From an uncultured Muribaculaceae bacterium (GTDB lineage Bacteria; Bacteroidota; Bacteroidia; Bacteroidales; UBA932), in NCBI GenBank assembly GCA_964458425.1, contig CAYWIW010000001.1, positions 94,275 to 158,274 on the forward strand: a DNA stretch of 64,000 nt. The letters are read 5' to 3'. The notes under the pieces were generated by a model. That model had not been told where the DNA came from, did not search any database, and was given only the letters and a program-made list of their open reading frames with translations. A program made the position numbers and the translations under genes. Every line of letters starts with the position of its first letter. Positions within the stretch are counted from its first letter, which is position 1. This document shows positions 1 to 64,000 of the stretch, one piece after another.

Positions 1-1
1 C

Positions 2-1576
2 AGAGACTGCAACATATTCCTTGAGAATGTAGACAAGGTGCCGGATATGCCAAGATCCGAGAAGGAAAGATGGAAAGCCGAGGTCAAGTTCATAAAGGCA
101 TATCTCCACATCTGGCTGTTCCAACTGTACGGGCCTATTCCTTTCGTGGACAAGAACATCGACGTGGATGCCTCAACGGAGGATGTCAAGGTCGAAAGGG
201 AGCCTGTGGACGACGTGGTCGCAAAGATCACAGGGCTTCTTGACGAGGCGATCGGTAGCAACGCCCTTCCTGAACACATCAGGGCAAGAGACACCGAGCT
301 TGGAAGAGTCACGAAGGCCGCGGCCCTTGCCATAAAGGCGCGTCTCCTCACTTACGCCGCAAGTCCGCTCTACAATGGGAACCAGGACTTTGCCGGGTGG
401 AAGGACTCCGAGGGAAGGAATATGATCAATCCAGAATATGACGCAAGCAAATGGGAGCTTGCGAGGGCTGCCTGCAAGGAGGCGATTGACGCCGCCGTCA
501 CCGCCGGACACGGTCTGTACACTTTCGACGAGCCGGTCAAGAACATCTCTGACACCACCAGGCTTGAGCTTACTCTCAGACACACCCTGACCAAGAAATT
601 CGGCGACGAGCTCATCTGGGGACTCGGTAGAAGGAACACCGAGGACTTGATGCGCATCGTCAACCCTCCTCTCACAACATATCATCTCTCAAACCAGCTT
701 TTCTGGGTGAAGATGATGCACAACCCGACCTTGGAGATTGTCGAGGAGTTCTACACAAGGAACGGTGTTCCAATCGACGAGGACAAAGACTATGACTACG
801 AAGGGAGGTACGATGTGATAAAGGTGCCTCACGACCATCAGTACTATGCGGACACGACCGCGAAAACCGCAAGGCTGCATCTTTTCAGAGAGCCGAGATT
901 CTATGCGTGGGTCGGCTTCGACAACGGCAAGTGGTTCAATATGGAAGTTACTGATGACAAGCATTCATACGTGCTTCACAGCAAGTCCGGCGGTCTGGCG
1001 GGTCGCTCGCTCGACAATTATTCCGTCACAGGCTTCTTCACCAAGAAACTCGTCAGCTACGAGCTTGTCCTGACCCAGTCCACGAACACAGGAGGACAAT
1101 GCTCAAGCTATGCGTTCCCGATCATAAGGCTCGCGGATCTGTATCTTCTCTATGCGGAGTGCCTCAACGAGTGCAAGGACTCCCCGGACGAGGAAGTGTA
1201 TGAGTATATCCAGCTCGTAAGGGACAAGGCGGGACTTGACAGAGAGACCGGCGGCCTTGTCGAGACCTGGGCGACATATTCATCAAATCCGGACAAGCCT
1301 AAGACAAAGGACGGGATGAGGGACATCATCCAGCGGGAGCGTATGATCGAGCTGGCCTTCGAAGGACAGAGATTCTACGACCTGAGGAGATGGAAGCTTG
1401 CGATGGACTATTGCAACCGTCCCGTAAGAGGATGGAGTGTCACAGAGTCCGACGATTCTTTCTACACTCCGTCATACATAGACTTCCCTACCTTCACACC
1501 GAAGAATTATTTCTGGCCGATCAAGCTTGACGACCTTTACAGGAACAATAAACTACAGCAGAGTTATCTCTGGTAA
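2..1576 (+). CDS. RagB/SusD family nutrient-uptake lipoprotein (5' truncated by window edge)
   Basis: The frame is open from base 2 (RDCNIFLENVDKVPDM). SusD motifs: LGRVTKAAALAIKARLLTYAASPLYN, REPRFYA, IIRLADLYLLYAE, ERMIELAFEGQRFYDLRRW. Confidence 0.95.
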   Translation, partial: RDCNIFLENVDKVPDMPRSEKERWKAEVKFIKAYLHIWLFQLYGPIPFVDKNIDVDASTEDVKVEREPVDDVVAKITGLLDEAIGSNALPEHIRARDTELGRVTKAAALAIKARLLTYAASPLYNGNQDFAGWKDSEGRNMINPEYDASKWELARAACKEAIDAAVTAGHGLYTFDEPVKNISDTTRLELTLRHTLTKKFGDELIWGLGRRNTEDLMRIVNPPLTTYHLSNQLFWVKMMHNPTLEIVEEFYTRNGVPIDEDKDYDYEGRYDVIKVPHDHQYYADTTAKTARLHLFREPRFYAWVGFDNGKWFNMEVTDDKHSYVLHSKSGGLAGRSLDNYSVTGFFTKKLVSYELVLTQSTNTGGQCSSYAFPIIRLADLYLLYAECLNECKDSPDEEVYEYIQLVRDKAGLDRETGGLVETWATYSSNPDKPKTKDGMRDIIQRERMIELAFEGQRFYDLRRWKLAMDYCNRPVRGWSVTESDDSFYTPSYIDFPTFTPKNYFWPIKLDDLYRNNKLQQSYLW

Positions 1577-1594
1577 CCAATAACACCCAGAACA

Positions 1595-2818: not shown

Positions 2819-2836
2819 GTTATTGAAGACTTCAAT

Positions 2837-4156: not shown

Positions 4157-4226
4157 GAAGCTGCCACGGGGGACGGTTTGTCTGGTTTTAAGGCAGTGAG
4201 TCCGACGTAATATTGTTCAGCAATTA

Positions 4227-24002: not shown

Positions 24003-24074
<72 letters not shown>

Positions 24075-24115
24075 CAAACTGCATTATTTAGTTTACTCAT
24101 TTAAAACATAATATT

Positions 24116-32322: not shown

Positions 32323-32349
32323 TTTTCAAGAATATTGACATTCAAGAAT

Positions 32350-47077: not shown

Positions 47078-47323
47078 TTAAGCACTTAAACCAGTCGAGA
47101 AAGGATATGCTAAAAAGTGTATTCTATGAGGATAGTTTGATATAAAGAATGCAAGTCTCCTATCTATCCTCGCCATTTTTTTCATTTCTCTCCTGACATA
47201 ATCCACTGTGACCGCAAAACCATAATGGTCATGCAGCTCTTTGGTGATTTCTTTCGCAGACATTTTAATTCCTGGTCCGGATCTTAATACATCTAAACCA
47301 GCCAATTGAAGTCTTGAACACAT
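47078..47323 (-). CDS. Small hypothetical protein, winged-helix-like
   Basis: MSAKEITKELHDHYGFAVTVDYVRREMKKM looks like an HTH; lies directly after the FRG gene and in the same frame. Confidence 0.45.
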   Translation of the reverse strand: MCSRLQLAGLDVLRSGPGIKMSAKEITKELHDHYGFAVTVDYVRREMKKMARIDRRLAFFISNYPHRIHFLAYPFSTGLSA

Positions 47324-47341
47324 CGACAACGCAATTAAATA

Positions 47342-48307: not shown

Positions 48308-48436
48308 TTATTCTTTAAACAGGGATAATCTTCGTCATCTCTTTACATATTTAATTGAACACCGTACAATCATTAAATGAAGCGAGAGCATTTGAAGATT
48401 ACCCTGCTTAAAGCATCATATTAATCAAATCTGTTT

Positions 48437-51166
48437 CTAAAAGTCGTAGCCGACGATGCTGTCCTTGTACTTGCTCCAATATTCATGAGCCTTGTAAGCA
48501 TCGACAGAGGACCTTGGAACATATATTCTCAAATCAACCAATGAATCAATACCTGACAAGTATGGCGGTACTGTGGCTTTGACATATAGTTTTGAGATTT
48601 TTTCGCACCTTAGGAATGCGGAAATAACTTTAATAGTACTTGGCAAAGTTACGGATTGGAGGTTAGTACAATTGAAAAAACAGTCCGTTGGTATTCTATC
48701 TACACCTTCTAAAACAACAACAGATAATAGTTTTTTACAGCCAGAGAATACATGCTCTCCATAACTGATAGCTGGCATCTCAAGGTGTACGATATTTGTG
48801 CCTCCAAATGCTCCGTCTCCTATTGAAATCACACTTTGAGGAATTGAGAATTTGTCAATAGCGGTACTAGTAAATGCACTAGATGCTATATTCTCCAAAC
48901 CCTCAGGCAATACTAAATCAACCAAAGATTTGCACTGTGAAAAAGCACCATGCCCTATAATTTTTACTCCTTGAGAAATAATTACTGATTTAAGTCTATC
49001 ACAATACCTAAATGCACCTCGCCCAATAAATTGCACATTACCTGGGATAGTAATTGCTTCTATTGTAGTAAAAGCAAAAACGTCAGAATTGATTTCTGAT
49101 AATCCGCCCGGAATATTAATAGTTGATATTTTGGAATCTTTAAAGGCCCCTTCCCCCAGTGATGACAAAGACTCGGGTAATACCACATTTGCAACTTTTA
49201 TCCTTGTAAATGCGTATCGTTCTATAGATTCCAAGCCTTCAGGCAATACTAAATCAACCAAAGATTCGCAGTAAGAAAAAGCATACTCTCCAATAGATTT
49301 AACCCCTTGGGGAATTATTATTGACTTGAGTGAGCTTGAACTAAAAGTATAAGGTTCGATTCTTGACAATTCGCTTGGAAGATTAATGGTTGATATTCCA
49401 GTATTATAAAAAGCTCTACCGCCTATTTTAGTAACCTTGTCTGGAATATTCACAGATTGCAAGTTTTTGCAATCGTTAAAAGCGAGTCCACCAATCTTCG
49501 TCACAGGGCCGTCGAACACTATTCTTCCAATGCCTTCCACGTATTCATTTGAGACAATGTTTGCCCCGAAAGTGTCATTATCGTACGGTTGCACAATGTT
49601 GCCGTCACTGGATGTGTAGTAGATTACATTATCGGGATGAGTGACAGACACATTGCAGGAAGCAGAGAAACCCGCCGAAATCGCTGTTATTATCGCTGTC
49701 CCGGTAGAAACGGCAGTCACTTTGCCGTTGTTGACTCTGGCCACGGACGCATCGGAGGATGACCAGGCCACGGTCTTGTCGGTCGCGTCAGCAGGACTTA
49801 CTGTGGCGGTCAGCTGGGCAGTCTCGCCCACAGCAAGAGAGAGGGCCGTCTTGTCAAGGCTGATTGAGGTCACAGGGACGCTCACAGTCACGACACACTC
49901 CGCGGTCTTCTCGCCGCACTTGGCGGTTATCGTGGCCTTGCCGGATTTCAACGCCGTCACCTTGCCGTTGTCAACCTTGGCCACGGACGCATCGGAGGAT
50001 GACCAGGCCACGGTCTTGTCGGTCGCGTCAGCAGGACTTACTGTGGCGGTCAGCTGGGCAGTCTCGCCCACAGCAAGAGAGAGGGCCGTCTTGTCAAGGC
50101 TGATTGAGGTCACAGGGACGCTCACAGTCACGACACACTCCGCGGTCTTCTCGCCGCACTTGGCGGTTATCGTGGCCTTGCCGGATTTCAACGCCGTCAC
50201 CTTGCCGTTGTCAACCTTGGCCACGGACGCATCGGAGGATGACCAGGCCACGGTCTTGTCGGTCGCGTCAGCAGGACTTACTGTGGCGGTCAGCTGGGCA
50301 GTCTCGCCCACAGCAAGAGAGAGGGCCGTCTTGTCAAGGCTGATTGAGGTCACAGGGACGCTCACAGTCACGACACACTCCGCGGTCTTCTCGCCGCACT
50401 TGGCGGTTATCGTGGCCTTGCCGGATTTCAACGCCGTCACCTTGCCGTTGTCAACCTTGGCCACGGACGCATCGGAGGATGACCAGGCCACGGTCTTGTC
50501 GGTCGCGTCAGCAGGACTTACTGTGGCGGTCAGCTGGGCAGTCTCGCCCACAGCAAGAGAGAGGGCCGTCTTGTCAAGGGTCACCGACTCAGTGTTGACA
50601 GTAACAGAGACATCGCATTCCGCGGTGCAGTTCCCGGACTTCGCCGTGATTGTGGCGGTACCGGATTTCCTGGCGGTCACCTTGCCGTCGGACACTGTCG
50701 CCACGGAGACATCCGACGAGTTCCACTCCACGGACTTATTGCTCGCGTTGTCCGGCTTCACTGTCGCCGTCAGAGTGGCCGTCTCGCCCACCTGAAGAGA
50801 CAGGGATGAATTGTCGAGGGTGACAGAGGTCACGGCGATTACCTTGGCGGAGACCCTTACGCCACAGGTGGAGGACTTGCCGCCGGCGCTGGCGGTGATG
50901 GTGGCGGTGCCTTCCTTCAAGGCGGTGACAACGCCGGAGGGGTTGACCCCGGCGACAGAGGCGTTGGAAGAGGCCCAGGTCACCCCGTCATACTCGGCGT
51001 CCTTCGGAAGCACCGTGGCGACGAGGCTGAACGTCTCGCCTTCCACCATTTCGATTGTCGCCGTGTTAAGCGACACGGAGGAAACCTCGACAAGGGTTTC
51101 CTTCTCTGCACATCCTGCAAATAAGATTGCAAGCATAGCGCTACATGTTAACTTGTGTAATTTCAT
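48437..51166 (-). CDS. Surface lipoprotein with six Big_2 (Ig-like) domains and a BspA-type LRR_5 C-terminus
   Basis: Lipobox LFAGC; repeats of V.SV.LD..L.L.VGET.L.ATV.P..A..K.V.WSSS; LRR repeats IPxxVxxIGxxAFxxC; C-terminal ATVPP, IYVP.SSVDAYK, WSKY. Confidence 0.93.
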   Translation of the reverse strand: MKLHKLTCSAMLAILFAGCAEKETLVEVSSVSLNTATIEMVEGETFSLVATVLPKDAEYDGVTWASSNASVAGVNPSGVVTALKEGTATITASAGGKSSTCGVRVSAKVIAVTSVTLDNSSLSLQVGETATLTATVKPDNASNKSVEWNSSDVSVATVSDGKVTARKSGTATITAKSGNCTAECDVSVTVNTESVTLDKTALSLAVGETAQLTATVSPADATDKTVAWSSSDASVAKVDNGKVTALKSGKATITAKCGEKTAECVVTVSVPVTSISLDKTALSLAVGETAQLTATVSPADATDKTVAWSSSDASVAKVDNGKVTALKSGKATITAKCGEKTAECVVTVSVPVTSISLDKTALSLAVGETAQLTATVSPADATDKTVAWSSSDASVAKVDNGKVTALKSGKATITAKCGEKTAECVVTVSVPVTSISLDKTALSLAVGETAQLTATVSPADATDKTVAWSSSDASVARVNNGKVTAVSTGTAIITAISAGFSASCNVSVTHPDNVIYYTSSDGNIVQPYDNDTFGANIVSNEYVEGIGRIVFDGPVTKIGGLAFNDCKNLQSVNIPDKVTKIGGRAFYNTGISTINLPSELSRIEPYTFSSSSLKSIIIPQGVKSIGEYAFSYCESLVDLVLPEGLESIERYAFTRIKVANVVLPESLSSLGEGAFKDSKISTINIPGGLSEINSDVFAFTTIEAITIPGNVQFIGRGAFRYCDRLKSVIISQGVKIIGHGAFSQCKSLVDLVLPEGLENIASSAFTSTAIDKFSIPQSVISIGDGAFGGTNIVHLEMPAISYGEHVFSGCKKLLSVVVLEGVDRIPTDCFFNCTNLQSVTLPSTIKVISAFLRCEKISKLYVKATVPPYLSGIDSLVDLRIYVPRSSVDAYKAHEYWSKYKDSIVGYDF
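49738..50579. repeat. Perfect 240-bp tandem repeat, about 3.5 copies
   Basis: The lines starting at 49741, 49981, 50221 and 50461 are identical, as are those at 49801, 50041 and 50281; 50521 differs only at 50580. Confidence 0.97.
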
Positions 51167-51178
51167 AAACTGGTGATA

Positions 51179-51526
51179 TTATATTATTATTTTGTATGGA
51201 ATTTCAACTGTAAACCCCTTAGATTCATTATCATAATTCGTAACAAGATATTCCCCCGACACGTCTTTTCTTTCGCTCAACTTGCCGATATCTTTATTTG
51301 GGTCATTGTCATCCGTTATTTGAGATAAAAGCGTTACTGTTGCATTAAAATAACCCTTCTTGCAATCTTCAAGACAATCGTCATTCACGGAATTTCCTGA
51401 TAGGTCTAAGCAAGATTCTAACGTAACGTCTTCTACTCTTTCAACAGAAGCTGTTTCAATTTTATGGCCAAGTAACTTGTTCTTAATACTTTCTTCCAAA
51501 TTGTTTCTTTTAACACTTTGTGGCAT
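51179..51526 (-). CDS. Hypothetical protein (acidic, AT-rich)
   Basis: 115-aa ORF with ATG, 12 nt upstream of the Big_2/LRR gene; no recognisable motif. Confidence 0.55.
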   Translation of the reverse strand: MPQSVKRNNLEESIKNKLLGHKIETASVERVEDVTLESCLDLSGNSVNDDCLEDCKKGYFNATVTLLSQITDDNDPNKDIGKLSERKDVSGEYLVTNYDNESKGFTVEIPYKIII

Positions 51527-51529
51527 AAT

Positions 51530-51830
51530 GCTGGCTTATTATTCGGCCCGGCCCCCGTAGCTGATTAAGTTTGTACAAAAAGAAAGTGTGGAGCCGATTC
51601 GTTTATCTAAAGAGAGGCTGTGGTAAAACCTTGGAATAAATAAACGGAAACAATCCCCACACCTGTATCGTTGAGTGTAGGGTACACGCAAGCAGATACA
51701 GATGAAAAGGTGTTGTCGGCGTCCCTATTCCATTGAAAATTACCACATTTTCTCTTTAAGGACAGTGCGAAAACACTTTCACCTAATATGTATGTTTCGG
51801 GTCACAAGACCTAAAACGATGCTAAGATAG
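51530..51830 (-). ncRNA. Candidate structured leader or small RNA
   Basis: Minus-strand TATCTTAG (51822-51829); long-range IR 51608-51626 / 51740-51758 enclosing nested stems CTGTATC/GATACAG and GTGTA/TACAC. Confidence 0.45.
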
Positions 51831-51971
51831 CAATATTTTCGGAGAAGACAACACCAGAGGGATTGTTTCGATGTAAAGTAATGATAATCAAAACAAGTAG
51901 GACGTAATTTGAAATATTGGCAGCGGCCTGGGCGAAGCTGATGGCAAAAACATCTGAATGTCTGCCTATTG

Positions 51972-52850
51972 TCAACAATGATTTCCCCACTTCAATGACC
52001 TGAAACTGTCCTGCAACTGCTCCATAATTTCATCAAATGATGGTGCTTCAGCATAGATGAAGCCAATTTGCATTTGGCGGTAAACGTCCTGTAATGCGGT
52101 CATTATATGTGCAGGAGGAACAGAATTTACGTTTGCGGCAAATGTGAGGCATAGTCAAGACCGCTCCAAGCGGTGAATTGACTACGGTGCGACACAATAT
52201 CCTCATACAGTATCTTGTTGTTCATTGCTTCGGAGGCAAACGGCTTATCCGTCATTTTGACAATGTCATACATATGGCAAGCTATACGTTCTATGCGTGT
52301 GCAACCATTAGGACGATTGAACTCTTTATGCAACAAAAACACTTTTTCCAGAAATGTTCGTCCCGGAGCAACTGTGGGAACAGCAAATGCAGATAAAGGA
52401 AATTCTTCATCAGGATACGCATCCTCTATCATCGAACGAATCTCTATCCTTTCAGACGGTTTCATAAGAGAACGACAACTTATTTAAAACTTAACTCGCT
52501 CCGGAATATATTGAATCTTATTTTGTAGGATTGAATCATACTCAATTAATACTGCAACAGGGTCGAGGTCACTTACCGAGGTTTCCGGGACAATTGCTTT
52601 ACAATGGTCAGATAAACCCAATTCATTTAATTTGTCGGCTATATCTACGGCAAAAACGGTGTCGATAGACTTCTTTGAATCTTTGCGTAATTTAGTTCGC
52701 CGACTTTTGGTATCAACAGTGGTGAATCCCAAATACTGGCGGTCTATTGCCAAATCAATATCTTCAGAAAACCGTTCTATCAATGACCAACCTTTGCTTT
52801 AACTCGTTCCGCCTTTGAATACAAAAGCAGTAGCGTATGTAGGATAGTAA
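51972..52850 (-). pseudogene. AbiEii/AbiGii nucleotidyltransferase toxin pseudogene
   Basis: AFVFKGGTS*SKGWSLIERFSEDIDL; PERVKF*ISCRSLM; RTFLEKVFLLH; HMYDI; frameshift near 52127, then VPP...YRQMQIGFIYAEAPSFDEIM. The 5' end is missing. Confidence 0.9.
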
Positions 52851-52977
52851 GTTTTTCTTCCATTGTAATTCTGTCCGAAATTCTTAAAGAAAATCAGACA
52901 ATTTATATAATAGAATCCCATATTAGGGATTATTGTTGTCCTTTGGGAATCTTGTAAACAATGGGATATTTGTGGTA

Positions 52978-53124
52978 TCAATATGGAGGCTCTTGGGAAT
53001 AATCCACTTCGCCGCCTTCGTTGAGCCTATCGGTCGGAACGGAGCCGAAAACATACAGCGAAACCACTTTATGCTTTTCACACAAAGCGATTATCTGAGC
53101 CATATTCCGTTCAATCAACTTCAT
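52978..53124 (-). pseudogene. Truncated minimal nucleotidyltransferase (MNT-type antitoxin) fragment
   Basis: MKLIERNMAQIIALCEKHKVVSLYVFGSVPTDRLN; has the GS motif but a degraded DxD and ends after about 48 aa. Confidence 0.75.
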
Positions 53125-53177
53125 AAGCACAAAGAAGTTAATTGCCGCCGAATAAGGCAAATCCGACAAATATGCCG

Positions 53178-53930
53178 TCAGAGATCGAGATCAAGCTCGA
53201 CAGGGCAGTGGTCGGAGCCGAGGATTCCGGTGTGGATCTCGGTGGAGCGGATCTTGTCCTTGAGGCTGTCGGAGACAAGGAAGTAGTCAAGACGCCAGCC
53301 GACGTTCTTCTCACGGGCGTGGAAACGGTACGACCACCAGGAGTACTTCACCTCGTCCGGGTGCTGGAAACGCCACGAGTCCGTGAAACCAGAATCCAGA
53401 AGCCCAGAGAACTTGCCCCGTTCCTCATCGGTGAATCCGGCGTTGCGGCGGTTCGTGTCAGGATTCTTGATGTCTATCTCGTTGTGCGCCACATTCAGAT
53501 CCCCGCAGACCACCACACCCTTGCGGGCGAAGAGTCCGGCAAGATACTCCCGGAAATCGTCCTCCCAACGCATCCTGTAGTCAAGCCTGCGCAGGCCGTC
53601 CTGTGAATTAGGCACATAGACACAGACAAGGTAGAACTCCGGCATCTCAAGCGTGATGACCCTACCTTCGTGGTCGTGCTCTTCAACCCCGATGCCGTAA
53701 GTCACCGACAGCGGCTGATGCCTCGAATATATCGCCGTTCCGGAGTATCCCTTCTTCTCCGCGGAGTTCCAGTAGGATGTGTAGCCCAGGAACTCCAGAT
53801 CCAGCTGCCCCGGCTGCATCTTGGTCTCCTGAATACAGAAAAAATCCGCGTCCAGAGTGTTGAACGCCTCATCGAAACCCTTTCCCGCACAAGCGCGCAG
53901 ACCGTTCACGTTCCAACTGATGAATCTCAT
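53178..53930 (-). CDS. xth: Exodeoxyribonuclease III
   Basis: ISWNVNGLRA, CIQETK, YVPNS, CGDLNVAH, YSWWSYR, GWRLDYF, SDHCPV. Start MRFISW (53930). Confidence 0.96.
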   Translation of the reverse strand: MRFISWNVNGLRACAGKGFDEAFNTLDADFFCIQETKMQPGQLDLEFLGYTSYWNSAEKKGYSGTAIYSRHQPLSVTYGIGVEEHDHEGRVITLEMPEFYLVCVYVPNSQDGLRRLDYRMRWEDDFREYLAGLFARKGVVVCGDLNVAHNEIDIKNPDTNRRNAGFTDEERGKFSGLLDSGFTDSWRFQHPDEVKYSWWSYRFHAREKNVGWRLDYFLVSDSLKDKIRSTEIHTGILGSDHCPVELDLDL

Positions 53931-54212
53931 ACCTTCAAATAATTCAAACCTCTGCAAAAATAGCACATTATCGTTGAATATCCCTATGCAACCATATTGA
54001 AGCTGACCAACGGTTGTCAGAATCAGCCGGACTCACATTCCATAATTGCCTCGGGACATCAGAAGCACCAATTGCCACGATGGTATCAGTCAACTCCCAC
54101 TAAAATCCCTATCCCTATTCAACCGCGACGAATCAGTTATTCAGCCCATTGCGGTTTTGGGTGCTTCGGTGTGCGGGGGGGTCTTGGCGCGCAAGGCTTC
54201 GTTGTGACGGGA

Positions 54213-56552
54213 CTACTTCCTTGGAGTGAGGGAGTACGGCTTATCCTCCGGCTTCAGGCCGCGTGACTTGTTCGGCCGGGAAGACATCACAAACTCGATA
54301 GTACCGCCTTGAAGAAGGTCATCGTGGGTTATGTAGAGGCGCTTGTACTCGACACCGTTCCGGAGAATCTTCTTCACGTAGCGGTTCGTGTCACTCACGC
54401 CTGAAGCCTTCACCTCAAGGGTCTTTCCGTCAGCCAATGCAATCTTGGCATAAGGAAGATACGGCGCTCCGAACACGTACTGGTCGCTTCCAGGACAGAC
54501 AGGATAGAACCCAAGGACTCCGAATATGTACCAGGCGGACATCTGCCCGCAATCGTCATTACCGCCAAGCCCGTGAATGTCAGGTCGGTACATCCTGTTG
54601 ATTATCTCCCTTATCCAATACTGTGTCTTCCAAGGCTGGCTTGTCCAGGCATAAAGATAAGGAATATGGTGGCTCGGCTCGTTGCCGTGGACATAGCCTC
54701 CGATCAGGCAGTCCTTGGTGACATCCTCGTTGGTGGCGTAGGCATATTCAGGAAGATCATGGTAGAACAGTTCGTCCAGCGCTGTGACAAACCTCTTCTC
54801 TCCGCCCATCAGCTCCATAACCCCGAACACATCCTGAGGCGCGTGGAACGAGAAGTTCAGCGAGTTCCCCTCGATGAAACCCTCGCCCATCGTCTGCATT
54901 ATGTCGAAGTCCTTCTTGAAAGAGCCATCGGAATACTTCGGCCGGGCGAAACCCAACTCAGTGTCAAACACGTTCCTATAGTAGCGCGCGCGTGGAAGGT
55001 ATTCGTCGGCGACCTTGCCGTTCCCGACAAGGCGGGCGGTGTTCCAGACAGTCCAGTCGTCGTAGGAATATTCCAGTGTGTTGCTCGCCGCCGTGGAGAT
55101 TCGGTCGTATGGCACATAGCCGAGCTTCATATAATCGCCGAGACCGGCGTACCACTCCGCCTTTGAGGTGGTCACCATAGCCTCAAGCGCCCTGTCACGG
55201 TCAACGTCAAGCCCCTTTGCGATAGCGTCCGCCAGCACAGGGACAGCGTGATAACCGCTCATACACCAGTTCTCGTTGGCGCAGTGACTCCAGACAGGAA
55301 GCATCTTCAGGACATTCTGGTCATAGTGCGCAAGCATCGACTCGATCATATCCCGGTCACGATCCGGCTTGAACAGGGCCAGGAACGGATGCTCGGCGCG
55401 GTAAGTGTCCCAGAGAGAGAACACCGTGTAGTTCGTGAAGCCGTCGGCCTGGTGTATCTCGTGGTCAAGCCCCCTGTACTTTCCATCCACATCCATATAG
55501 ACTGACGGATTGATCATCGTATGGTAGAGGGATGTATAGAACATCTTCTTCTCGTCTTCGGTCCCCTGTACATCTATCTGCGAGAGTTCCTTTTCCCAAG
55601 CCGAGGAGGCTTCAGCCGCGATGGTCCCGAAAGACTTTCCCGACGCTTCCGCCGCAAGGTTCTTCAGCGCGCCCTCCGCGCCTGTGGCGGAAAGTGCCAC
55701 CTTAACCGTCAGCACAGGGTTTCTGGAGGTGGCGAACTTGAACCAGGCTACCAGCTTGCGTCCCGCCATAGCAGGGAAATCACGGTACTGGGCGAACTTG
55801 CTCCAGCCACCCTTGTAGTTGATTCGGGCACGGTCGGTGTAGCCATATTCAGTGACAGGCTGCGAGAATGAAATCGCGAAATATGTGTAGTTGGCGCGCG
55901 CCCAGCCATTTGTGATCCGGTAGCCGGTCAGCAGGGTGTCGTTCCGGACCTGCACCTCAGCCCAGAGGGTCTTGCCGTCGTAGTTGTAGATTCCGTGTAT
56001 CAAGTCCAGAATCACCTGGCCGTCAGTGCCCTGCGGGAATGAATATTCGTGTACTCCCACTCTGGTGGTAGCTGTCAGACGGGCTTTCACGCCGTAGTCG
56101 TCGAGCATCACCTCGTAGTAACCGGGCGAGGCCTTCTCGGTGTCGTGGGAAAAGCGGCTGCGATAGCCGCTGTCCGGGTTGTCGCCGGTTCCGGGATTCA
56201 GTCTGAGCGTCCCCGTGGTCGGCATCAGCAGGATGTCCCCGAGATCAGAGTGGCCGGTACCGCTGAAATGGGTGTGGCTGAAGCCCACAATGGTCGGATC
56301 CGAGTAACGGTAGCCGGCACAATACTCATAGACATGCGGCTGGTACTTACCGTCCACGTTGTGAGGAATCGTGTCCGTGTCCGGACTGAGCTGAACCCCG
56401 CCAAACGGCACGCACGCCCCGGGAAATGTGTGCCCCATTCCGTCGGTGCCGATGAAAGGATCGACATAACCTGCCTTGGATGCAGGCTGCTGCGCGGATG
56501 TCACCGCACAGAGAAGCAGGAACAATCCTGCACATAACCATTTCATATTCAT
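54213..56552 (-). CDS. GH92 alpha-mannosidase, secreted
   Basis: VDPFIGT, GHTFPGACVPFG.VQLSPDT, FSHTHFSGTG, FSLWDTYRA, HGNEPSHH, GNDDCGQMSAW. Confidence 0.95.
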   Translation of the reverse strand: MNMKWLCAGLFLLLCAVTSAQQPASKAGYVDPFIGTDGMGHTFPGACVPFGGVQLSPDTDTIPHNVDGKYQPHVYEYCAGYRYSDPTIVGFSHTHFSGTGHSDLGDILLMPTTGTLRLNPGTGDNPDSGYRSRFSHDTEKASPGYYEVMLDDYGVKARLTATTRVGVHEYSFPQGTDGQVILDLIHGIYNYDGKTLWAEVQVRNDTLLTGYRITNGWARANYTYFAISFSQPVTEYGYTDRARINYKGGWSKFAQYRDFPAMAGRKLVAWFKFATSRNPVLTVKVALSATGAEGALKNLAAEASGKSFGTIAAEASSAWEKELSQIDVQGTEDEKKMFYTSLYHTMINPSVYMDVDGKYRGLDHEIHQADGFTNYTVFSLWDTYRAEHPFLALFKPDRDRDMIESMLAHYDQNVLKMLPVWSHCANENWCMSGYHAVPVLADAIAKGLDVDRDRALEAMVTTSKAEWYAGLGDYMKLGYVPYDRISTAASNTLEYSYDDWTVWNTARLVGNGKVADEYLPRARYYRNVFDTELGFARPKYSDGSFKKDFDIMQTMGEGFIEGNSLNFSFHAPQDVFGVMELMGGEKRFVTALDELFYHDLPEYAYATNEDVTKDCLIGGYVHGNEPSHHIPYLYAWTSQPWKTQYWIREIINRMYRPDIHGLGGNDDCGQMSAWYIFGVLGFYPVCPGSDQYVFGAPYLPYAKIALADGKTLEVKASGVSDTNRYVKKILRNGVEYKRLYITHDDLLQGGTIEFVMSSRPNKSRGLKPEDKPYSLTPRK

Positions 56553-56908
56553 AGGCCAAATATACAAAAACTATTGTTTTTTAAATACATTTTTGTAAAT
56601 TGCCGACTAAATCGGTTTTGGTTGAATAGTATTGATGCGTTGAACCACGCATTGGATTTTGTAACTAATTGACACATTTTAAACAAGTTCTTTGATAACC
56701 ACAATTTGAAACGAGTTCGTAGTCTTGCGTTCTGATCCGCAGGATATGAACAAAGGCAAGCAAGCATTCACCCAAGTCCTGAGTCCGGCTCCGCGGCGGA
56801 TTATCCGAGAGCCCCTCGACTTGCGTATTTCTTTTTGGGGAAATCGCTGACGCGTCCATCCCTCTTTCTATTACTACTGATTCACATTAAACTTCAAATT
56901 CAGTATTT

Positions 56909-59900
56909 ATGTCTTTAAAGAAAATCGTACTGTCTCTCCTCCTGACACTCGCTCCATTGGCGGTTCTGGCCCAGACCAAGACCATCAAGGGTGTGATCTA
57001 CGAGGAGGAAAGCGGCGAGACTATGCCGGGAGCGACAGTGTCGGTTGTCGGATCCACCAAGGGTGTGATGACTGACCTTGACGGTTCCTTCGAGCTGTCC
57101 GGAGTCAAGCCGACTGACAAACTTAAATTTGAGTGCCTTGGAAAGGAGTCTCAGATTCTGGAGGTCGGAAGTATGACCAACTTCATCGTTAAGCTGAAGA
57201 ACGCGGCTAACGAACTTGACGAGGTGACCGTTGTCGCCTTCGGTAAACAGAGAAAAGAGAGCACCGTGGCCGCCATCACCACCGTTGATGTCGGAACATT
57301 GAAGGTGCCGTCCAGCAACCTGACCACAGCCCTTGCGGGTAATGTCGCCGGTGTCATCGCCTACCAGCGTTCCGGTGAGCCGGGACAGGACAACGCCGAC
57401 TTCTTCGTGCGCGGTATCACCACATTCGGAGCCAACACCAGCCCTCTGATCCTCATTGACAACATCGAGCTGACCTCCACCGATCTCGCCCGCCTTCAGC
57501 CGGATGACATCGAAAGCTTCTCGATTATGAAGGACGCCACGGCTACCGCCCTCTACGGAGCGCGCGGAGCTAACGGAGTCATCTTCGTGACCACAAAACG
57601 CGGCCAGGAAGGCCCGGCTAAAATCTTCGCCCGTGTCGAGACTTCTATCTCCCAGCCGACCGACGTTGTCGAGCTTGCCGACCCTATCACCTATATGAAG
57701 TCCTACAACGAGGCCATCACCACCCGTGACCCTCTCGGAGAGCTGATGTACTCCTACGACAAGATCGAGAACACCGGGAAGCCGGGCTCCAATCCGTACA
57801 TCTATCCTGCCAACGATTGGTACAAGATGCTTTTCAAAGATTTTTCTACGGCGTATCGCGCAAACGTTTCCGCACGTGGTGGAGGCAAGGTTGCCACCTA
57901 CTATGTCTCCGGTGCCTTCACCCAGGACACAGGTATTCTGAACGTCGATAAGAGGAACAGCTTCAACAACAACATTGACCAGAAGACATATACCCTGCGC
58001 TCCAACATCGACATAAATGTGACCCCGACCACAAAGCTTGCCGTCCGCCTTACCGGCAACTTCACCGACTACCGCGGACCGCTCGACGGAGGAAACAAGG
58101 TTTATGTGGATGTGGTTCACTCCGACCCTGTGCTCTTCCCGGCCTACTATCCTATGGATGACGACCACATCGGAATCAAGCACATTATGTTCGGCAACTA
58201 CGATAAGGGGCAGTACACAAACCCTTACGCCAATATGGTGAAAGGTTACCGTGACTACCAGCGCTCACAGATGATAGCCGCCATCGAGCTGAACCAGAAT
58301 CTTGATTTCATCACAAAGGGACTCAGCGCTATGACTCTCTTCAACCTGACCCGTCTTTCTGACTTCAGCGTGAACCGTCAGTTCAGCCCCTTCTGGTACA
58401 CCCTCAACACCCACGATTCCTACACCGGAGAGTACCACCTTGCCCGAATCAACGACGACGGTACCGATTACCTCACCTACAACGAAGGCAACAAGACGGT
58501 ACAGAACACATTGTACTCGGAAACGCGCCTTAACTACGCCCGCGACTTCGGCCGCAGCGAGGTCACCGGACTGTTGGTTCTCACTGCCTACGAGTCACGG
58601 AAGGCCAACGCCGGTTCCCTCCAGCTTTCCCTCCCTTCCCGCAACGCCGGTCTTTCCGGACGTTTCACCTACGGCTGGGACAAAAGGTACTTCACCGAGT
58701 TCAACTTCGGTTACAATGGATCGGAACGCTTCCACAAGTCCCACCGCTGGGGATTCTTCCCGTCCGCCGGAGCCGCCTGGGTGGTCTCCAACGAGCATTG
58801 GTTCAAGTCTTTGAAGAAGACAGTTGACAACCTCAAGCTACGCGTCTCCTATGGTCTCGTCGGAAACGACAAGATCGGAAGCGAGAGCAACCGTTTCTAT
58901 TATCTCTCCGAAATGAACATGAGCAGCTCCAGCCTGTCAGCCACTTTCGGCGAGTTCCGCGGAGTGACCTATAAGGGCATCGATGTTGTCCGCTACGCCA
59001 ACGAAGCCATCACGTGGGAAAAATCCTACAAGACCAACTACGCTGTCGAAATAGGCTTGTTCGACAATTTCGACCTCATCGCCGAGTACTTCACGGAGAG
59101 ACGCAAGGACATATTTATGTCCCGCGCCGATGTTCCTGAGACAATGGGACTTCAGGCCGGCATCTCCGCCAACATCGGAGAGGCGAGGGCACACGGCGTG
59201 GATCTCCAGGCCGAGTACCAGAAAGTTTGGAGCAAGGATCTCTGGACATCGGCGAGAGCCAACTTCACCTGGTCAAACGGAAAATACGATGTCTACGAGG
59301 AGCCTACCTATCCCGAGAAGTACCGCCAGCACGCCGGCCACTCGATCAAACAGACCTGGGGCTACATCGCCGAACGTCTGTTCATCGATGACGAGGAGGC
59401 AGCCAACAGCCCTGACCAGACTTCATTCGGCTCTCCTTACGGCGGAGGTGACATCAAGTACACCGATGTCAACGGCGACGGCAAGATTACCTCCGCGGAT
59501 ATGGTCCCTATCGGCTATCCTACCTCTCCGGAGATCATCTACGGCTTCGGTGTGTCCATCGGTTACAAGGGTGTTGACCTTTCCGTGTTCTTCCAGGGCC
59601 TTGGCCGCGAATCATTCTGGATCAATGCCACAAGCACCTACAACACAAAGAACAACATTTACGGCACCGCTCCGTTCGTCAACAACACGCAGCTGCTTAA
59701 GGCATATTCCGACAGCCACTGGAGCGAGGACAACCGCGACATCTACGCTCTTTACCCAAGGTTCAGCTCCTACGAGAACCGTAACAACACGGCGACAAGC
59801 ACCTGGTGGATGAGGGACGGCTCGTTCCTCAGGCTGAAGCAGCTAGAACTAGGCTACACCCTTCCGCAGAAGCTCACTCGCAAGCTCAGCATCGACAGCC

Positions 59901-60043
59901 TGCGGCTTTACTTCCAGGGCAACAACCTCTGGTGCTGGAGCAAGTTCAAGCTTTGGGACCCAGAGCTTGCCGGAAACGGCCTCAACTACCCTATTCAGAG
60001 GACATTCAACTTTGGTGTGAATGTTACGTTCGACACCAAATAA
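56909..60043 (+). CDS. SusC/RagA family TonB-dependent transporter
   Basis: CarboxypepD-like N-terminus, LDEVTVVAFG, DIESFSIMKDA.ATALYGARGANGVI.VTTKRG plug, YPIQRTFNFGVNVTF. Confidence 0.97.
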   Translation: MSLKKIVLSLLLTLAPLAVLAQTKTIKGVIYEEESGETMPGATVSVVGSTKGVMTDLDGSFELSGVKPTDKLKFECLGKESQILEVGSMTNFIVKLKNAANELDEVTVVAFGKQRKESTVAAITTVDVGTLKVPSSNLTTALAGNVAGVIAYQRSGEPGQDNADFFVRGITTFGANTSPLILIDNIELTSTDLARLQPDDIESFSIMKDATATALYGARGANGVIFVTTKRGQEGPAKIFARVETSISQPTDVVELADPITYMKSYNEAITTRDPLGELMYSYDKIENTGKPGSNPYIYPANDWYKMLFKDFSTAYRANVSARGGGKVATYYVSGAFTQDTGILNVDKRNSFNNNIDQKTYTLRSNIDINVTPTTKLAVRLTGNFTDYRGPLDGGNKVYVDVVHSDPVLFPAYYPMDDDHIGIKHIMFGNYDKGQYTNPYANMVKGYRDYQRSQMIAAIELNQNLDFITKGLSAMTLFNLTRLSDFSVNRQFSPFWYTLNTHDSYTGEYHLARINDDGTDYLTYNEGNKTVQNTLYSETRLNYARDFGRSEVTGLLVLTAYESRKANAGSLQLSLPSRNAGLSGRFTYGWDKRYFTEFNFGYNGSERFHKSHRWGFFPSAGAAWVVSNEHWFKSLKKTVDNLKLRVSYGLVGNDKIGSESNRFYYLSEMNMSSSSLSATFGEFRGVTYKGIDVVRYANEAITWEKSYKTNYAVEIGLFDNFDLIAEYFTERRKDIFMSRADVPETMGLQAGISANIGEARAHGVDLQAEYQKVWSKDLWTSARANFTWSNGKYDVYEEPTYPEKYRQHAGHSIKQTWGYIAERLFIDDEEAANSPDQTSFGSPYGGGDIKYTDVNGDGKITSADMVPIGYPTSPEIIYGFGVSIGYKGVDLSVFFQGLGRESFWINATSTYNTKNNIYGTAPFVNNTQLLKAYSDSHWSEDNRDIYALYPRFSSYENRNNTATSTWWMRDGSFLRLKQLELGYTLPQKLTRKLSIDSLRLYFQGNNLWCWSKFKLWDPELAGNGLNYPIQRTFNFGVNVTFDTK

Positions 60044-60055
60044 TGTACGGGAATT

Positions 60056-62026
60056 ATGAAAAAGTCATTTAAGAATATCACAATTTCGCTGTTGGCGGCG
60101 GGGGCATTGTCTGCGGTCAGCGGCTGCAACCAGTTCCTTGACGTTGTGCCTGATGACGGCCTGGCGTCAATCGAGACGGCCTTCAACCTCAGATCGACGG
60201 CCATTAGGTATCTGGCCACCTGCTACTCCTATATGACCAACGATGGCGTGGCCGGAAAGGACAGCGGTATGCTCACCGGTGACGACCTGTGGGATCTTGA
60301 CACCCGCGTCACCACGTATCTCTACAACAAGAACTCAGCCTCGTTCCCTATCGCGAAAGGCCTTCAGAGCGCCGCTATCTGCTACAACAGCGACTGGAAG
60401 AGTATGTACGAGGGAATCCGTTGCTGTGACATCCTTGTGGAGAACATCGACGGCGTCCCGGATATGACCGAGGATGAGAAATCCCAGTGGAAGGCCGAGG
60501 CTTCGTTCCTCAAGGCCTACTACCACTTCAACCTTATCCGCAAATGGGGTCCCGTCCCGATCATCCGCGAGAGCCTTCCGATAGACTCTTCAGTCGAGGA
60601 GGTGCGTGTGTACCGCGACAATATTGACGATTGCTTTGACTTCGTGCTTGACCTTCTGGACGAGGCTTTGCCCTATCTGCCTCTTGTCAACCCGTCCTCC
60701 GACGAGCTTGGCCGCATCACCAAGCCAATCTGTGCCGCTCTCAAGGCCAAGGTCGCCGTTTATGCCGCTAGCCCTCTGTTCAACGGCAACGATGAGGAAG
60801 CCGCCTTGGTTGACGGCAAGGGCGAGAGACTCTTCCCGGCAAAGTCCGAAGCCGACAAACTCAAACGTTGGGAATATGCCCTTGAGGCTTGTGAGGATGC
60901 CATAGATGTCTGCGAAGAGGCCAACCTAAAGCTTTATGACAGGGTCAATGTGGAAAGGGAATACAGGATGTGCGACTCACTCATCACCGACCTCACAATC
61001 CGCAACGCTTTCTGCGAAAGATGGAACAGCGAGTTGATCTGGGGCAACACCCAGGTCTCCACCGGAACATTCCAGCAGTGGTGCGCGCCTATTCTGCAGA
61101 AAGACGCAGACGGGGCCAAGCTTGGCGGTATCGGAGGAACCGACTTCATCGGAGTTCCGCTAAAGATAGCCGAGATGTTCTACACAAAGAACGGCCTTCC
61201 GATCAACTACGACAAAGAGTTCGCAAGTACGGACCAGTACAGTCTCAGAACCGGAGACACCGCCCATAAATACTACATCAAGCAGGGCTACCAGACCATC
61301 CAGCTGAACTTTGACCGTGAGCCAAGGTTCTATGCCGACCTTGGATTCGACGGTGGCAAGTGGCTCGGAGCCCTTGGCAACTACAATGACCTTCAGCCCG
61401 ATGACATCCACACCCTTGAGGCCCGAGGCGGAAGCTCCAACGGAAAGACCAACAACAAGGAAGCCGGTCCTGTCACAGGCTATTTCCCCAAGAAACTCGC
61501 CCCTTACAGGCTGATTTGGTCAGGGAACGCCTCCTTTGCGTCGGTATCGACATATTGGTACCCTTGGCCGATAATCAGACTGTCAGACCTTTACCTGCTT
61601 TACGCCGAGGCCATCAATGAGGCAGAGGGACCTGACGGAGCCTACAGCGAGGAGTTGTTCAACGCTCTTGACGCGATTCGCAAGCGGGCCGGAATCCCCG
61701 GCGTGAAAGAGTCCTGGGACAACTACAGCACGCGCCCTGACCTCTACAAGTCACAGGTCGGAATGCGTGAGATCATCCATCGCGAGCGTCTGATCGAGCT
61801 GGCGTTCGAGAGCCAGAGATTCTGGGATCTCCGCCGTTGGAAGGAGGCTTCCACCGAGTACCAGAAAGGAATCTACGGATTCCGTGTCTCGGCCTCGTCT
61901 CCGGGCGAATACTATCAGAAGACTCTGGTCTCAGAGCAGAACTTCGGTCTCAAGGACTACTTCTGGCCTATCTACACGTACTACATTGAAAGAAACCCTA
62001 ATCTGGTGCAGAATCTGGGCTGGTAA
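60056..62026 (+). CDS. RagB/SusD family lipoprotein
   Basis: Lipobox VSGC, FLDVVP, AYYHFNL, LGRITK, REPRFYA, IIRLSDLYLLYAE, ERLIELAFE.QRFWDLRRW. Confidence 0.96.
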   Translation: MKKSFKNITISLLAAGALSAVSGCNQFLDVVPDDGLASIETAFNLRSTAIRYLATCYSYMTNDGVAGKDSGMLTGDDLWDLDTRVTTYLYNKNSASFPIAKGLQSAAICYNSDWKSMYEGIRCCDILVENIDGVPDMTEDEKSQWKAEASFLKAYYHFNLIRKWGPVPIIRESLPIDSSVEEVRVYRDNIDDCFDFVLDLLDEALPYLPLVNPSSDELGRITKPICAALKAKVAVYAASPLFNGNDEEAALVDGKGERLFPAKSEADKLKRWEYALEACEDAIDVCEEANLKLYDRVNVEREYRMCDSLITDLTIRNAFCERWNSELIWGNTQVSTGTFQQWCAPILQKDADGAKLGGIGGTDFIGVPLKIAEMFYTKNGLPINYDKEFASTDQYSLRTGDTAHKYYIKQGYQTIQLNFDREPRFYADLGFDGGKWLGALGNYNDLQPDDIHTLEARGGSSNGKTNNKEAGPVTGYFPKKLAPYRLIWSGNASFASVSTYWYPWPIIRLSDLYLLYAEAINEAEGPDGAYSEELFNALDAIRKRAGIPGVKESWDNYSTRPDLYKSQVGMREIIHRERLIELAFESQRFWDLRRWKEASTEYQKGIYGFRVSASSPGEYYQKTLVSEQNFGLKDYFWPIYTYYIERNPNLVQNLGW

Positions 62027-62035
62027 CTTTAATTA

Positions 62036-63355
62036 ATGACACAAAGTATGAACAACATATTCAAGACAACATTCTTTCTGCTCTGCTCCGCTCTTCTTCT
62101 TGCCGCCTGCGACGACGGAGCGAATGAGTTTGGACGTATAGACCAGAAAGACGAGAGCATCCCCGCTCCAAGCCCTGTTTCGGTAGAGAGCGTGAGAAGC
62201 ATCAGCGGAGGGGCTGTCATCAAGGTGAACATCCCCGATGATGACAACATCAAGGGTGTCATCGCAAAGTACACCCGCAACGGAGAGCAGGTAAACGCGA
62301 AAATCTCCCGCTACGTGGACAGCCTTACCGTGGTGGGCTTCGTTGACACCAAGCCGCACACCGTCGAGCTTGCGTCCATCAATGTCAACGAGGTGGAGTC
62401 AACGCCTGTCAAGGTGGAGGTCACCCCTCTTGAGCCGGCCATCTCCCTTGCCACTGCCACTCTTTACCAGACGTTCGGAGGTGTGAAGGTCCGGATTGAC
62501 GGCAACACTCCCAGGGAGAACCTGACAATCGTTCTTCTGCGCGACACCGACCTCAGCGATTTCGACAAGCCGGTCAGCCAGATGAAATGGGAGCAGGTGA
62601 CCACGCTGTTCACAGCCGCCGAGCAGATAACTCTTTCAAGGCGTGACATTGAGCCTGTGGAGGCCATCTTCGGAGCCTACCTCCGCGACAGGTGGGGCAA
62701 TGTGTCCGACACCGTGAAGGCGATCCTCACCCCTTTGGAGGAAGTCAAGCTCACGAAGTCCAAGTTCAGGGACGCAAAGATCAAGGATGACAACTGCACC
62801 GCCAGCTCGTCCAAATATGGAGTGGATATGCTTTGGGACGGGCTTAACGACCCTGACGGAAAGGGGACGAACCTCTTCGACAGCAACCCTGCGGCTTTGC
62901 CGGCGTGGATCACCATCGATCTGGGAGTGCTGACCAAGCTCAGCCACGTCCAGACCCTGCCACGCGGCCGTAACTACTACTGCTACGACGGCGCACAGGT
63001 GCGCAAATTCGAATTCTGGGGAAGCAAGAACCCTACCGGCGAAGTAGTGGCCGGGAACGAACACGGATTCGACAACACCTGGTTCTGCCTCGGACGTTTT
63101 GAGCAGACAAAGCCGTCCGGCTATGATCCTGACGGTGCGGTCGGCCCTATCACCCAGGATGACAGGGAGTATTGGAACAAAGGCAATGACTTTGAGTTCA
63201 ACAATGAGGAATACCCTCACGCCTACGACGAACTCCGCTACCTGCGCGTTGTCTTCGTGGACACCTTCGCCTCTTACGGCTACACCGGCAGCTCGTTCAA
63301 AATCCAGATGGGTGAGCTGACCCCTTACGGACAGGTGCTTCAGGAATATAGATAA
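62036..63355 (+). CDS. PUL-associated lipoprotein, DUF4959/DUF5126/DUF5000-type
   Basis: Lipobox LAAC; GGAVIKVNIPDD, TFGGVKV, DRWGNVSD, WITIDLGV, RYLRV; paralogue of 1595..2818. Confidence 0.8.
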   Translation: MTQSMNNIFKTTFFLLCSALLLAACDDGANEFGRIDQKDESIPAPSPVSVESVRSISGGAVIKVNIPDDDNIKGVIAKYTRNGEQVNAKISRYVDSLTVVGFVDTKPHTVELASINVNEVESTPVKVEVTPLEPAISLATATLYQTFGGVKVRIDGNTPRENLTIVLLRDTDLSDFDKPVSQMKWEQVTTLFTAAEQITLSRRDIEPVEAIFGAYLRDRWGNVSDTVKAILTPLEEVKLTKSKFRDAKIKDDNCTASSSKYGVDMLWDGLNDPDGKGTNLFDSNPAALPAWITIDLGVLTKLSHVQTLPRGRNYYCYDGAQVRKFEFWGSKNPTGEVVAGNEHGFDNTWFCLGRFEQTKPSGYDPDGAVGPITQDDREYWNKGNDFEFNNEEYPHAYDELRYLRVVFVDTFASYGYTGSSFKIQMGELTPYGQVLQEYR

Positions 63356-63365
63356 AAACCGCTTT

Positions 63366-64000
63366 ATGATGAATATGAAAACATTGAAAACAAGCATATT
63401 TGCATCCGCTATCGTCCTTGCCGCGGCCGCCTGCACCTCACAGGATGACATCTACAAGGAGTTTGTCAAGGGCGGTGGCTACATCTATCCGGCCAAGGCC
63501 TTGAACATCAAGTCTGAAACCGGATTCAACAAGGTGACGCTGTTCTGGCCTGTACCGAAGGATCCTTCCGTCAGAAGCGCCAGGGTCTACTGGGACAGCA
63601 GGTCCGACTCGGTTGATCTGAACTACTCGGATTTCACAGACACCGTGTCCGTGAAGATAGAGGGTCTCGACGACCGTGGCTACACATTTGAAATCGTCAA
63701 TTTCGACAAACTCGGCAACAGGTCTATGTCATCCGAACTTACCGCCACTCCTTATGGCAAGAACTGGCTCTCGACCCACGAGGAAAGAAAGTTCACCCAC
63801 GCTTGGGTTGACGGCACGACAGCCACGGTCCAGCTTACGGAATCGACATCCGAGATGGTGGCCACCAAGTTCCGCTACAAGAACACGGAGGGAGAATGGG
63901 TGGAGTACGGCCCGAGGATGACTCCGCGAGAGGTAAGTTTCAAACTTCCTGACGCCAAGCGCGGAAAGTACTTCGAGTTCTGCTCGGGATTCCTCCCAAG
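63366..64000 (+). CDS. DUF4998-type lipoprotein (3' truncated by window edge)
   Basis: Absent from the ORF track because it has no stop: MMNMKTLKTSIFASAIVLAAAACTSQDDIYKEFVKGGGYIYPAKA...GFNKVTL...YTFEIVNFDKLGNRS. Confidence 0.8.
   Translation, partial: MMNMKTLKTSIFASAIVLAAAACTSQDDIYKEFVKGGGYIYPAKALNIKSETGFNKVTLFWPVPKDPSVRSARVYWDSRSDSVDLNYSDFTDTVSVKIEGLDDRGYTFEIVNFDKLGNRSMSSELTATPYGKNWLSTHEERKFTHAWVDGTTATVQLTESTSEMVATKFRYKNTEGEWVEYGPRMTPREVSFKLPDAKRGKYFEFCSGFLP

Follow-up and report, generated by a model that had tools for sequence, protein, structure and literature searches.

Near-complete removal of the tetranucleotide CATG from the core genome of a Cryptobacteroides-like bacterium, a probable case of restriction-site avoidance

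The tetranucleotide CATG is almost missing from a 64-kb stretch of bacterial DNA (hereafter the window, meaning all 64 kb analyzed) and from the genome that holds it, G000, a Cryptobacteroides-like 2.56-Mb draft assembly from an uncultured gut Bacteroidales bacterium, in 48 contigs, that is 94% complete and probably metagenome-derived (other G-numbers are labels for comparison genomes). The titles on the RpoB loci closest to G000 include Candidatus Cryptobacteroides and uncultured Bacteroidales. Silent changes have removed about 99% of the CATG sites from the core genome of G000, and comparison with the nearest species indicates that this purge arose on the branch of the G000 species itself. 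By analogy with known systems, the probable cause is a CATG-cutting restriction activity acting on that branch, that is, restriction-site avoidance, to which a probability of roughly 0.7 is assigned.

Results

CATG is nearly absent from the window and the genome

An exact search of the window recovered 11 CATG sites (positions 24049, 24397, 25718, 47230, 48484, 48751, 48949, 51144, 54758, 56333, and 58918), whereas dinucleotide-preserving shuffles predict 249.6 ± 14.3, a deficit of about 17 standard deviations. An earlier note on this DNA had listed eight sites against an expectation of a couple of hundred; all eight positions are real, but three sites (25718, 54758, and 58918) had been missed, and the depletion is stronger than claimed. 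In the whole of G000, 565 CATG sites are present against ~9,400 expected, giving an observed/expected ratio (O/E) of 0.060 with a maximal-order Markov model, 0.054 with a first-order model, and 0.057 with a zero-order model. CATG has the lowest O/E of all 256 tetramers under the maximal-order model, and the ratio near 1 that would have undone the claim, or an explanation by codon or dinucleotide bias, was not seen. Of 489 5-kb tiles, 364 (74%) contain no CATG where ~19 per tile are expected, and site-free contigs reach 274 kb. The core DNA retains 105 isolated sites in otherwise site-free stretches (O/E ~0.012). The bases flanking surviving sites show no favored context, indicating that the bare tetramer is the target.

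CTAG is also scarce in G000 (O/E 0.09), yet it is scarce in nearly every relative sampled, and its shortage is thus a trait of the group and not of the G000 species. Further avoided words in G000 are GGWCC (0.37), GAGCTC (0.24), CATATG (0.24), GTCGAC (0.27), GAGCCC/GGGCTC (0.29), CTGCAG (0.37), and GACGTC (0.38). The low value for CATATG may in part be a by-product of the surplus TATG and CATA created by the CATG purge.

The depletion is not a codon, dinucleotide, or translation effect

When synonymous codons were shuffled inside each of 1,317 long open reading frames (ORFs; 2.03 Mb), with the protein and the codon usage of each gene kept, 6,451 ± 30 CATG sites were predicted; 395 are present, mostly in 71 genes. 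The deficit extends to all three frames (a hyphen marks the codon boundary), with 201 observed versus 4,970 shuffled sites for nnC-ATG, 139 versus 894 for CAT-G, and 55 versus 554 for nCA-TGn. Codons ahead of Met end in C in 1.3% of cases, compared to 36% overall, and His is encoded by CAT in 5% of cases before G, compared to 34-64% before other bases. The avoidance of C before Met in rpoB, which the earlier note had pointed out, is complete: none of 28 such codons in rpoB (39% C-ending overall) and none of 36 in rpoC end in C (0/64 together, against 39-41% overall). DNA outside any open frame of ≥80 codons contains 43 CATG sites versus 208 expected (O/E 0.21). Codon usage, amino acid content, and dinucleotide bias therefore fail to explain the depletion, and, since all three frames and noncoding DNA are depleted, the pressure is on the DNA word itself.

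Loss of CATG on the branch of the G000 species

In the four nearest species, whose RpoB is 95-97% identical to that of G000 and whose DNA around rpoB is ~83-88% identical, the CATG O/E is 0.65-0.87, and their CATG sites are shared at orthologous positions with the same frequency as other tetramers (0.48-0.84). Their common ancestor was thus not depleted, which contradicts the lineage-wide pressure proposed in the earlier note. Using positions identical in G025 and G018 as the ancestral state (37 kb), 70 ancestral CATG sites were identified, of which 67 were lost in G000, while none was gained. In the same comparison, other tetramers have a retention of 0.69, with 0.46 for the next-lowest word, and a median gain ratio of 0.29, so that the CATG loss rate is at least 8.5 times background. 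The four-fold degenerate sites of G000 and its nearest species differ at p = 0.49, indicating a branch long enough for such a purge. Taken together, these comparisons point to a derived trait of the G000 species' own branch, which could be placed on that branch because unpurged sister species were available.

No gain of CATG is seen in the 37 kb against ~20 expected, and the gain ratio of 0.29, extended to the whole genome, would predict ~2,500 gains over the branch, compared to the 105 isolated sites present. Both figures suggest that the pressure either continues today or stopped only within roughly the final 4% of the branch.

The words now found at former CATG sites are the synonymous escapes of the three frames: TATG/CATA accounts for ~50%, CACG/CGTG for ~16%, and GATG/CATC for ~13%, with AATG/CATT, CCTG/CAGG, and others also present. 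The base before Met is G in 45%, T in 37%, and A in 17% of cases, and proportional reallocation of the C share, calculated from overall third-base frequencies, would give G 45, T 31, and A 23%. This near-proportional reallocation, along with the use of all synonymous routes, argues for selection against the word rather than for 5-methylcytosine deamination or Vsr-biased repair.

Patchy depletion across the genus and the order

CATG O/E was estimated in 36 congeners and a further three from 5-80 kb of sampled sequence apiece. Deep depletion was found in G020 (0.06), G024 (0.01-0.26), G035 (0.04-0.11), G321 (0.15), G033 (0.16-0.32), and G011 (0.11-0.30, about 0.15; 98% complete), and it is suggested by smaller samples for G001 and G036. 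G017 is a mixed bin of two close species with two rpoB copies that are 95% and 96% identical to that of G000; one component has 0 of ~171 expected CATG sites, and the other has 22 of 27, a normal level. On the RpoB protein tree, G000 pairs with the unpurged G025, and the nine depleted rows need nine changes, at least seven of which are forced by well-supported branches. The tree thus indicates that the purge arose several times independently in the genus, with at least seven changes. Outside the genus, the lowest O/E among ~55 Bacteroidota loci and 15 order-level genomes is 0.40, and values of ≤0.26 are confined to this genus among ~150 sampled Bacteroidota genomes.

Other words have been purged to a comparable depth in congeners, including ACGT (0.07) and AGCT (0.04) in G019 and GATC (0.20) in G026. 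In other species of the group, GATC has an O/E of 0.05 in locus L014 and 0.06 in G038. The strongest GATC depletions in the genus (G026, G010, and G016) occur in genomes with Dam-like D12 methylases, usually beside an N6_N4 methylase.

Islands of CATG-bearing DNA

Recently arrived DNA is less depleted than the core: 460 of the 565 CATG sites in G000 fall in ~24 clusters, mostly of low guanine-plus-cytosine (GC) content, and the mean number of sites per 5-kb tile is 8.3 at GC <0.42 and 0.3-0.55 at GC ≥0.50. Low-GC segments cover all densities from 0 to 2.8 CATG per kb. One of them, at C17:42-52.5 kb, is free of CATG and carries NUDIX, NADAR, and ADP-ribosylglycohydrolase genes; no restriction-modification (R-M) system was found there. 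The island in the window is intermediate, with an O/E of 0.26 against 0.02 and 0.09 in its flanks (1-46800 and 53901-64000), so that the proposal of avoidance relaxed only in an AT-rich island is roughly right.

The CATG-rich islands of G000, including C2:1-10000, C29:1-12500, and C12:66-78 kb, are dense in defense genes. They include CRISPR-Cas genes of types III and II, two Type I systems in which four genes code for specificity subunits, and genes for a Type IIG enzyme, an Mza (MzaB) system, and a HipA kinase.

Since 74% of 5-kb tiles lack CATG altogether, its density sharply distinguishes foreign or mis-binned sequence within G000. The suggestion that CATG density dates foreign DNA holds in this qualitative sense; it provides no calibrated clock, and donors may themselves be depleted.

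Features of the window and surviving sites

The gene labels given earlier for the tRNA-Thr, tuf, and GH92 sites are correct. The features of the window are as follows (strand given where assigned).

1-46800: core DNA purged of CATG; three sites versus ~174 expected (O/E 0.02)
24049-24052: surviving CATG in tRNA-Thr(ggt) (24003-24075), ancestral and common to relatives
24397-24400: surviving CATG in tuf (Pfam), AAC-ATG, in frame nnC-ATG
25718-25721: surviving CATG formed by the C ahead of the nusG start codon (Pfam; taCCATGGct)
28504-36600, plus strand: rpoB-rpoC; no CATG in 8.1 kb
46801-53900: low-GC island (GC down to 0.37); five CATG sites (47230, 48484, 48751, 48949, and 51144), O/E 0.26
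53901-64000: GH92, SusC, and SusD polysaccharide-utilization genes; three CATG sites versus ~34 expected (O/E 0.09)

The site in tRNA-Thr belongs to an RNA gene, for which there is no synonymous escape. Two tRNA-Met genes of G000 retain one CATG each (C4:47689 and C11:77881), and the tRNA-Met and tRNA-Thr sites together fit survival only where a silent escape is absent. In the polysaccharide-utilization region, the GH92 gene (Pfam) holds two sites (54758 and 56333), and the third (58918) lies in a SusC-like TonB receptor gene. The island codes for an FRG-domain protein, a 909-amino-acid BspA-LRR/Big_2 surface protein, and an AbiEii toxin fragment, and its left border is formed by a PD-(D/E)XK transposase-like gene (PDDEXK_2, 45842-46744). 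A gene of the Exo_endo_phos nuclease family is also present in region 45842-53966.

Search for a CATG-specific system in G000 and its relatives

The word specificity of the depletion, together with an NlaIII/IceA1-type cassette in the equally depleted congener G020, supports the R-M cause put forward in the earlier note. IceA1 is cited as a CATG-recognizing enzyme homologous to NlaIII, and hpyIM as a CATG methylase, in PMC13340068 (its references 17 and 45). The cassette lies at the start of contig 11 of G020 (C11:1-3652), where an N6_N4 methyltransferase gene (271 amino acids), an ICEA endonuclease gene (271 amino acids; PF05315, E 5e-113), and a D12 methyltransferase gene (333 amino acids) lie in tandem with the same orientation. 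Read from their first possible start codons, frames one and two overlap by ~130 nt. The ORFs of the cassette are located as follows.

L201:667-1482: first cassette ORF
L201:1352-2167: second cassette ORF
L188:1495-2496: third cassette ORF

G020 (CATG O/E 0.06) provides the sole ICEA match among 61 genomes of the genus; a cognate-type system is thus present in one relative that shares the avoidance, while the other depleted congeners lack it.

None of the R-M systems identified in G000 fits CATG.

G000: Sau3AI-family endonuclease (NCBIfam equivalog, 413 bits) with a C5 methylase; GATC O/E 0.59
G000: TdeIII-family endonuclease with a C5 methylase; GGWCC O/E 0.37
G000: two Type I systems and a Type IIG enzyme

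In all, five C5 methyltransferases are encoded in G000, including one with a Vsr partner, and none of the R-M systems of G000 tracks the CATG depletion. The sites of its resident systems are mildly avoided (GATC 0.59, GGWCC 0.37), which was counted in favor of restriction-site avoidance.

Several candidates were tried and rejected. The orphan C5 methyltransferase and its paired Vsr (C2:42998-44392) were considered as a source of CATG methylation, but G025 and G032, which are not depleted, have orthologues of them (76-79% identity), and a DrmMII-like methylase and MzaB pair on C12 is common to the non-depleted G015. An operon in the C2 island, comprising a controller gene, a C5 methyltransferase gene unique to G000, ORF240, and AAA_5 (McrB-like) and LlaJI-like genes, is of LlaJI/McrBC type and lies in CATG-rich DNA of 38% GC, too recent to be the driver. 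Likewise, an EcoRI_methylase-family methyltransferase (E 4e-147) paired with a GmrSD_N (DUF262)-HNH protein (C41:403-2669) lies in low-GC DNA and has eight CATG sites in ~1.5 kb. Six other congeners have a conserved version of this pair (38-70% identity); CATG O/E was measured in four of them (G007, G021, G025, and G026), none of which is depleted. GAATTC is not avoided in G000 (O/E 1.03). The C41 pair places a methyltransferase beside a Type IV-like nuclease. Because a driver resident throughout the purge should itself be CATG-poor, cassettes in islands are excluded. Across the order, the presence of ICEA was also rejected as a general predictor of extreme depletion, being accompanied elsewhere by mild avoidance only.

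A number of these and related results weigh against a CATG restriction system as the cause in G000. The CATG methyltransferase or endonuclease that the earlier note suggested looking for was not found in the 94%-complete assembly, so that the R-M cause is argued by analogy. There is no match to PF05315, the ICEA/NlaIII-family endonuclease model, which does detect G020, G374, G270, and G432, and none to the D12 (PF02086), N6_N4 (PF01555), PF05869, or PF05063 methylase models (phage-Dam and MT-A70 included). A tblastn search with the G020 cassette returned no trace in G000 (ICEA protein, E 0.79 or worse), and the orthologous locus of G000 contains neither a remnant nor an insertion of a G020-type cassette. 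Each methyltransferase that was found in G000 either is assigned elsewhere, is common to non-depleted relatives, or lies in recently arrived CATG-rich DNA. Tolerance of the ~460 CATG sites in islands would require that they are protected by methylation, that the enzyme was lost very recently, or that the islands themselves are very recent arrivals. A cognate system is missing from several other depleted congeners as well; in the 98%-complete G011, the only representative of the four main Type II methylase families is a broken C5 gene. This C5 methyltransferase gene of G011 (C15:738-1211) is decayed, with two in-frame stops. Finally, the 401-genome sample of the order contains three intact ICEA genes and one broken copy, in genomes with CATG O/E values of 0.48-0.68, suggesting that an ordinary NlaIII-type system alone does not predict an 80-fold purge. 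The absence of a cognate system from a 94%-complete assembly is, however, not proof of absence.

Alternative explanations

The explanation closest to ongoing restriction is a variant of it, in which a CATG R-M system purged the genome and has since been lost, so that the depletion is a relic and nothing acts on CATG now. Such a history would account for the lack of cognate genes in the 94%-complete assembly and for the ~20 islands of near-normal CATG density that are tolerated. Avoidance without a system is common and has been read as the trace of lost systems (PMC4687349), and the continuum of O/E values in the genus, from 0 to 0.4, is as expected of relics at varied stages of recovery. The missing gains nevertheless make it unlikely: with 0 seen versus ~20 expected in 37 kb, and 105 isolated core sites versus ~2,500 expected gains, any pressure-free period is estimated at no more than ~4% of the branch, and catching so short an interval is improbable a priori. 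A different agent is conceivable in place of orthodox methylase-protected R-M, for example a nuclease from an undescribed family that is solitary or poorly protected and circulates in this genus, or CATG methylation set against a methylation-dependent nuclease. Such an agent would make every CATG costly and so lead to an 80-fold purge. The purge is indeed far deeper than that of the sites of G000's own R-M systems (0.37-0.59) or of CATG in ICEA-positive Bacteroidales (0.48-0.68); O/E values of ≤0.26 occur only in this genus in the Bacteroidota sample, and most depleted congeners lack any candidate CATG methylase. G000 also has nucleases of modification-dependent type, a GmrSD_N-HNH protein and the McrB-like/LlaJI-like pair, but both cassettes are in recently arrived CATG-rich DNA and are thus not a long-term driver. 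Across the genus, the depletion does not follow the presence of any candidate gene, and 460 sites in islands would not be expected under an unprotected nuclease. The depth of the purge and the missing methylases in most purged congeners leave some room for a less orthodox agent of this kind, which is considered rather improbable.

Mutation offers a route to CATG loss that involves no cutting, either through decay of 5-methylcytosine at CATG to TATG/CATA, in the manner of CpG decay, or through Vsr repair that turns CATG into CACG. The five C5 methyltransferases of G000, one of them with Vsr, and the predominance of TATG/CATA among replacements (~50%) are in line with this route. Approximately half of the replacements, however, are other words, including transversions and changes at the A/T positions, rather than a single class of transition; the bases before Met (G 45, T 37, and A 17%) are near-proportional without a flood of T; the T-to-C products predicted for Vsr amount to only ~16%; and the methyltransferase and Vsr pair, far from being specific to depleted genomes, is also found in the non-depleted G025 and G032. 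The surplus of TATG follows from nnC to nnT being the sole synonymous escape for two-fold codons. A mutational origin is therefore very improbable. An artefact of library construction, assembly, or binning, or an avoidance of C before AUG at the level of translation, has a negligible probability. The draft assembly probably derives from a metagenome, and the nnC-ATG frame accounts for most of the expected sites, but all three frames and noncoding DNA are depleted, site-free contigs extend up to 274 kb, islands embedded within contigs keep CATG, orthologous former sites carry clean synonymous substitutions, and independent assemblies of other species are alike. Mutational and artefactual explanations are thus essentially excluded.

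Discussion

Restriction-site avoidance is proposed to have operated in G000 in the following way. After the split from its nearest sampled relatives, the chromosome would have been exposed to a CATG-cutting nuclease, in the simplest case an orthodox Type II enzyme with NlaIII-like specificity, and each unprotected or incompletely methylated CATG would have carried a small cost. Synonymous removal would always have been available (nnC-ATG to nnT, nnA, or nnG; CAT-G to CAC-G; and nCA-TGn to nCB-TGn), and selection could have cleared nearly every site from coding and noncoding core DNA while blocking new ones. Later-arriving DNA would still carry sites, and older imports would be partly purged. 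The enzyme may be encoded in the missing ~6% of the genome or on a plasmid, may belong to an undescribed family, or may have been lost within approximately the last 4% of the branch; a live system that is unassembled or unrecognized is more likely than a system whose loss falls within the final few percent of the branch. A doubtful extension of this reading is that a CATG restriction activity of a family missed by current models circulates in this genus and drives repeated near-total purges in single species. Such an activity would have no NlaIII/IceA homologue and no adenine or N4 methylase partner, and it may operate under weak or no methylation protection.

Avoidance of short palindromes in prokaryotes was described by Gelfand and Koonin (1997) and Rocha et al. 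(2001), as cited in PMC4687349. In that study, Rusinov et al. (2015) reported widespread avoidance of orthodox Type II sites, which becomes stronger the longer a system has been resident and often persists after the system is gone. The depletion in G000 resembles these cases in that a 4-bp palindrome of orthodox Type II kind is scarce relative to Markov expectation independently of codon bias, is less avoided in recently acquired DNA, varies among close relatives, and is sometimes avoided without a cognate system. It differs in depth, with a core O/E of ~0.012 compared to ~0.37-0.68 for the sites of systems present here or in ICEA-positive relatives, and in distribution, being placed on one terminal branch, recurring at least seven times in one genus, and having a cognate system in 1 of 61 genus genomes.

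Among known CATG systems, NlaIII of Neisseria lactamica and IceA1-HpyIM of Helicobacter pylori share the target word, and G020 combines an ICEA endonuclease flanked by adenine/N4-type methylases with the same depletion. In contrast, an ICEA homologue, a D12 methylase, and an N6_N4 methylase are all missing from G000, which is thus not placed with these systems. UpaP162 of Ureaplasma parvum is a CATG endonuclease without a recognizable domain that is paired with a methylase (PMC6191088). Likened by description only, it illustrates how an enzyme in G000 could escape homology searches; unlike the situation for UpaP162, no unassigned methylase was found in the CATG-poor DNA of G000.

Restriction-site avoidance is a textbook phenomenon, and the general picture is unchanged by the G000 case, which is unusually clean and extreme. 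The genus provides a natural experiment on the speed and completeness with which a 4-bp word can be purged from a genome, on how long the footprint persists after the enzyme is gone, and on the existence of unrecognized CATG nucleases.

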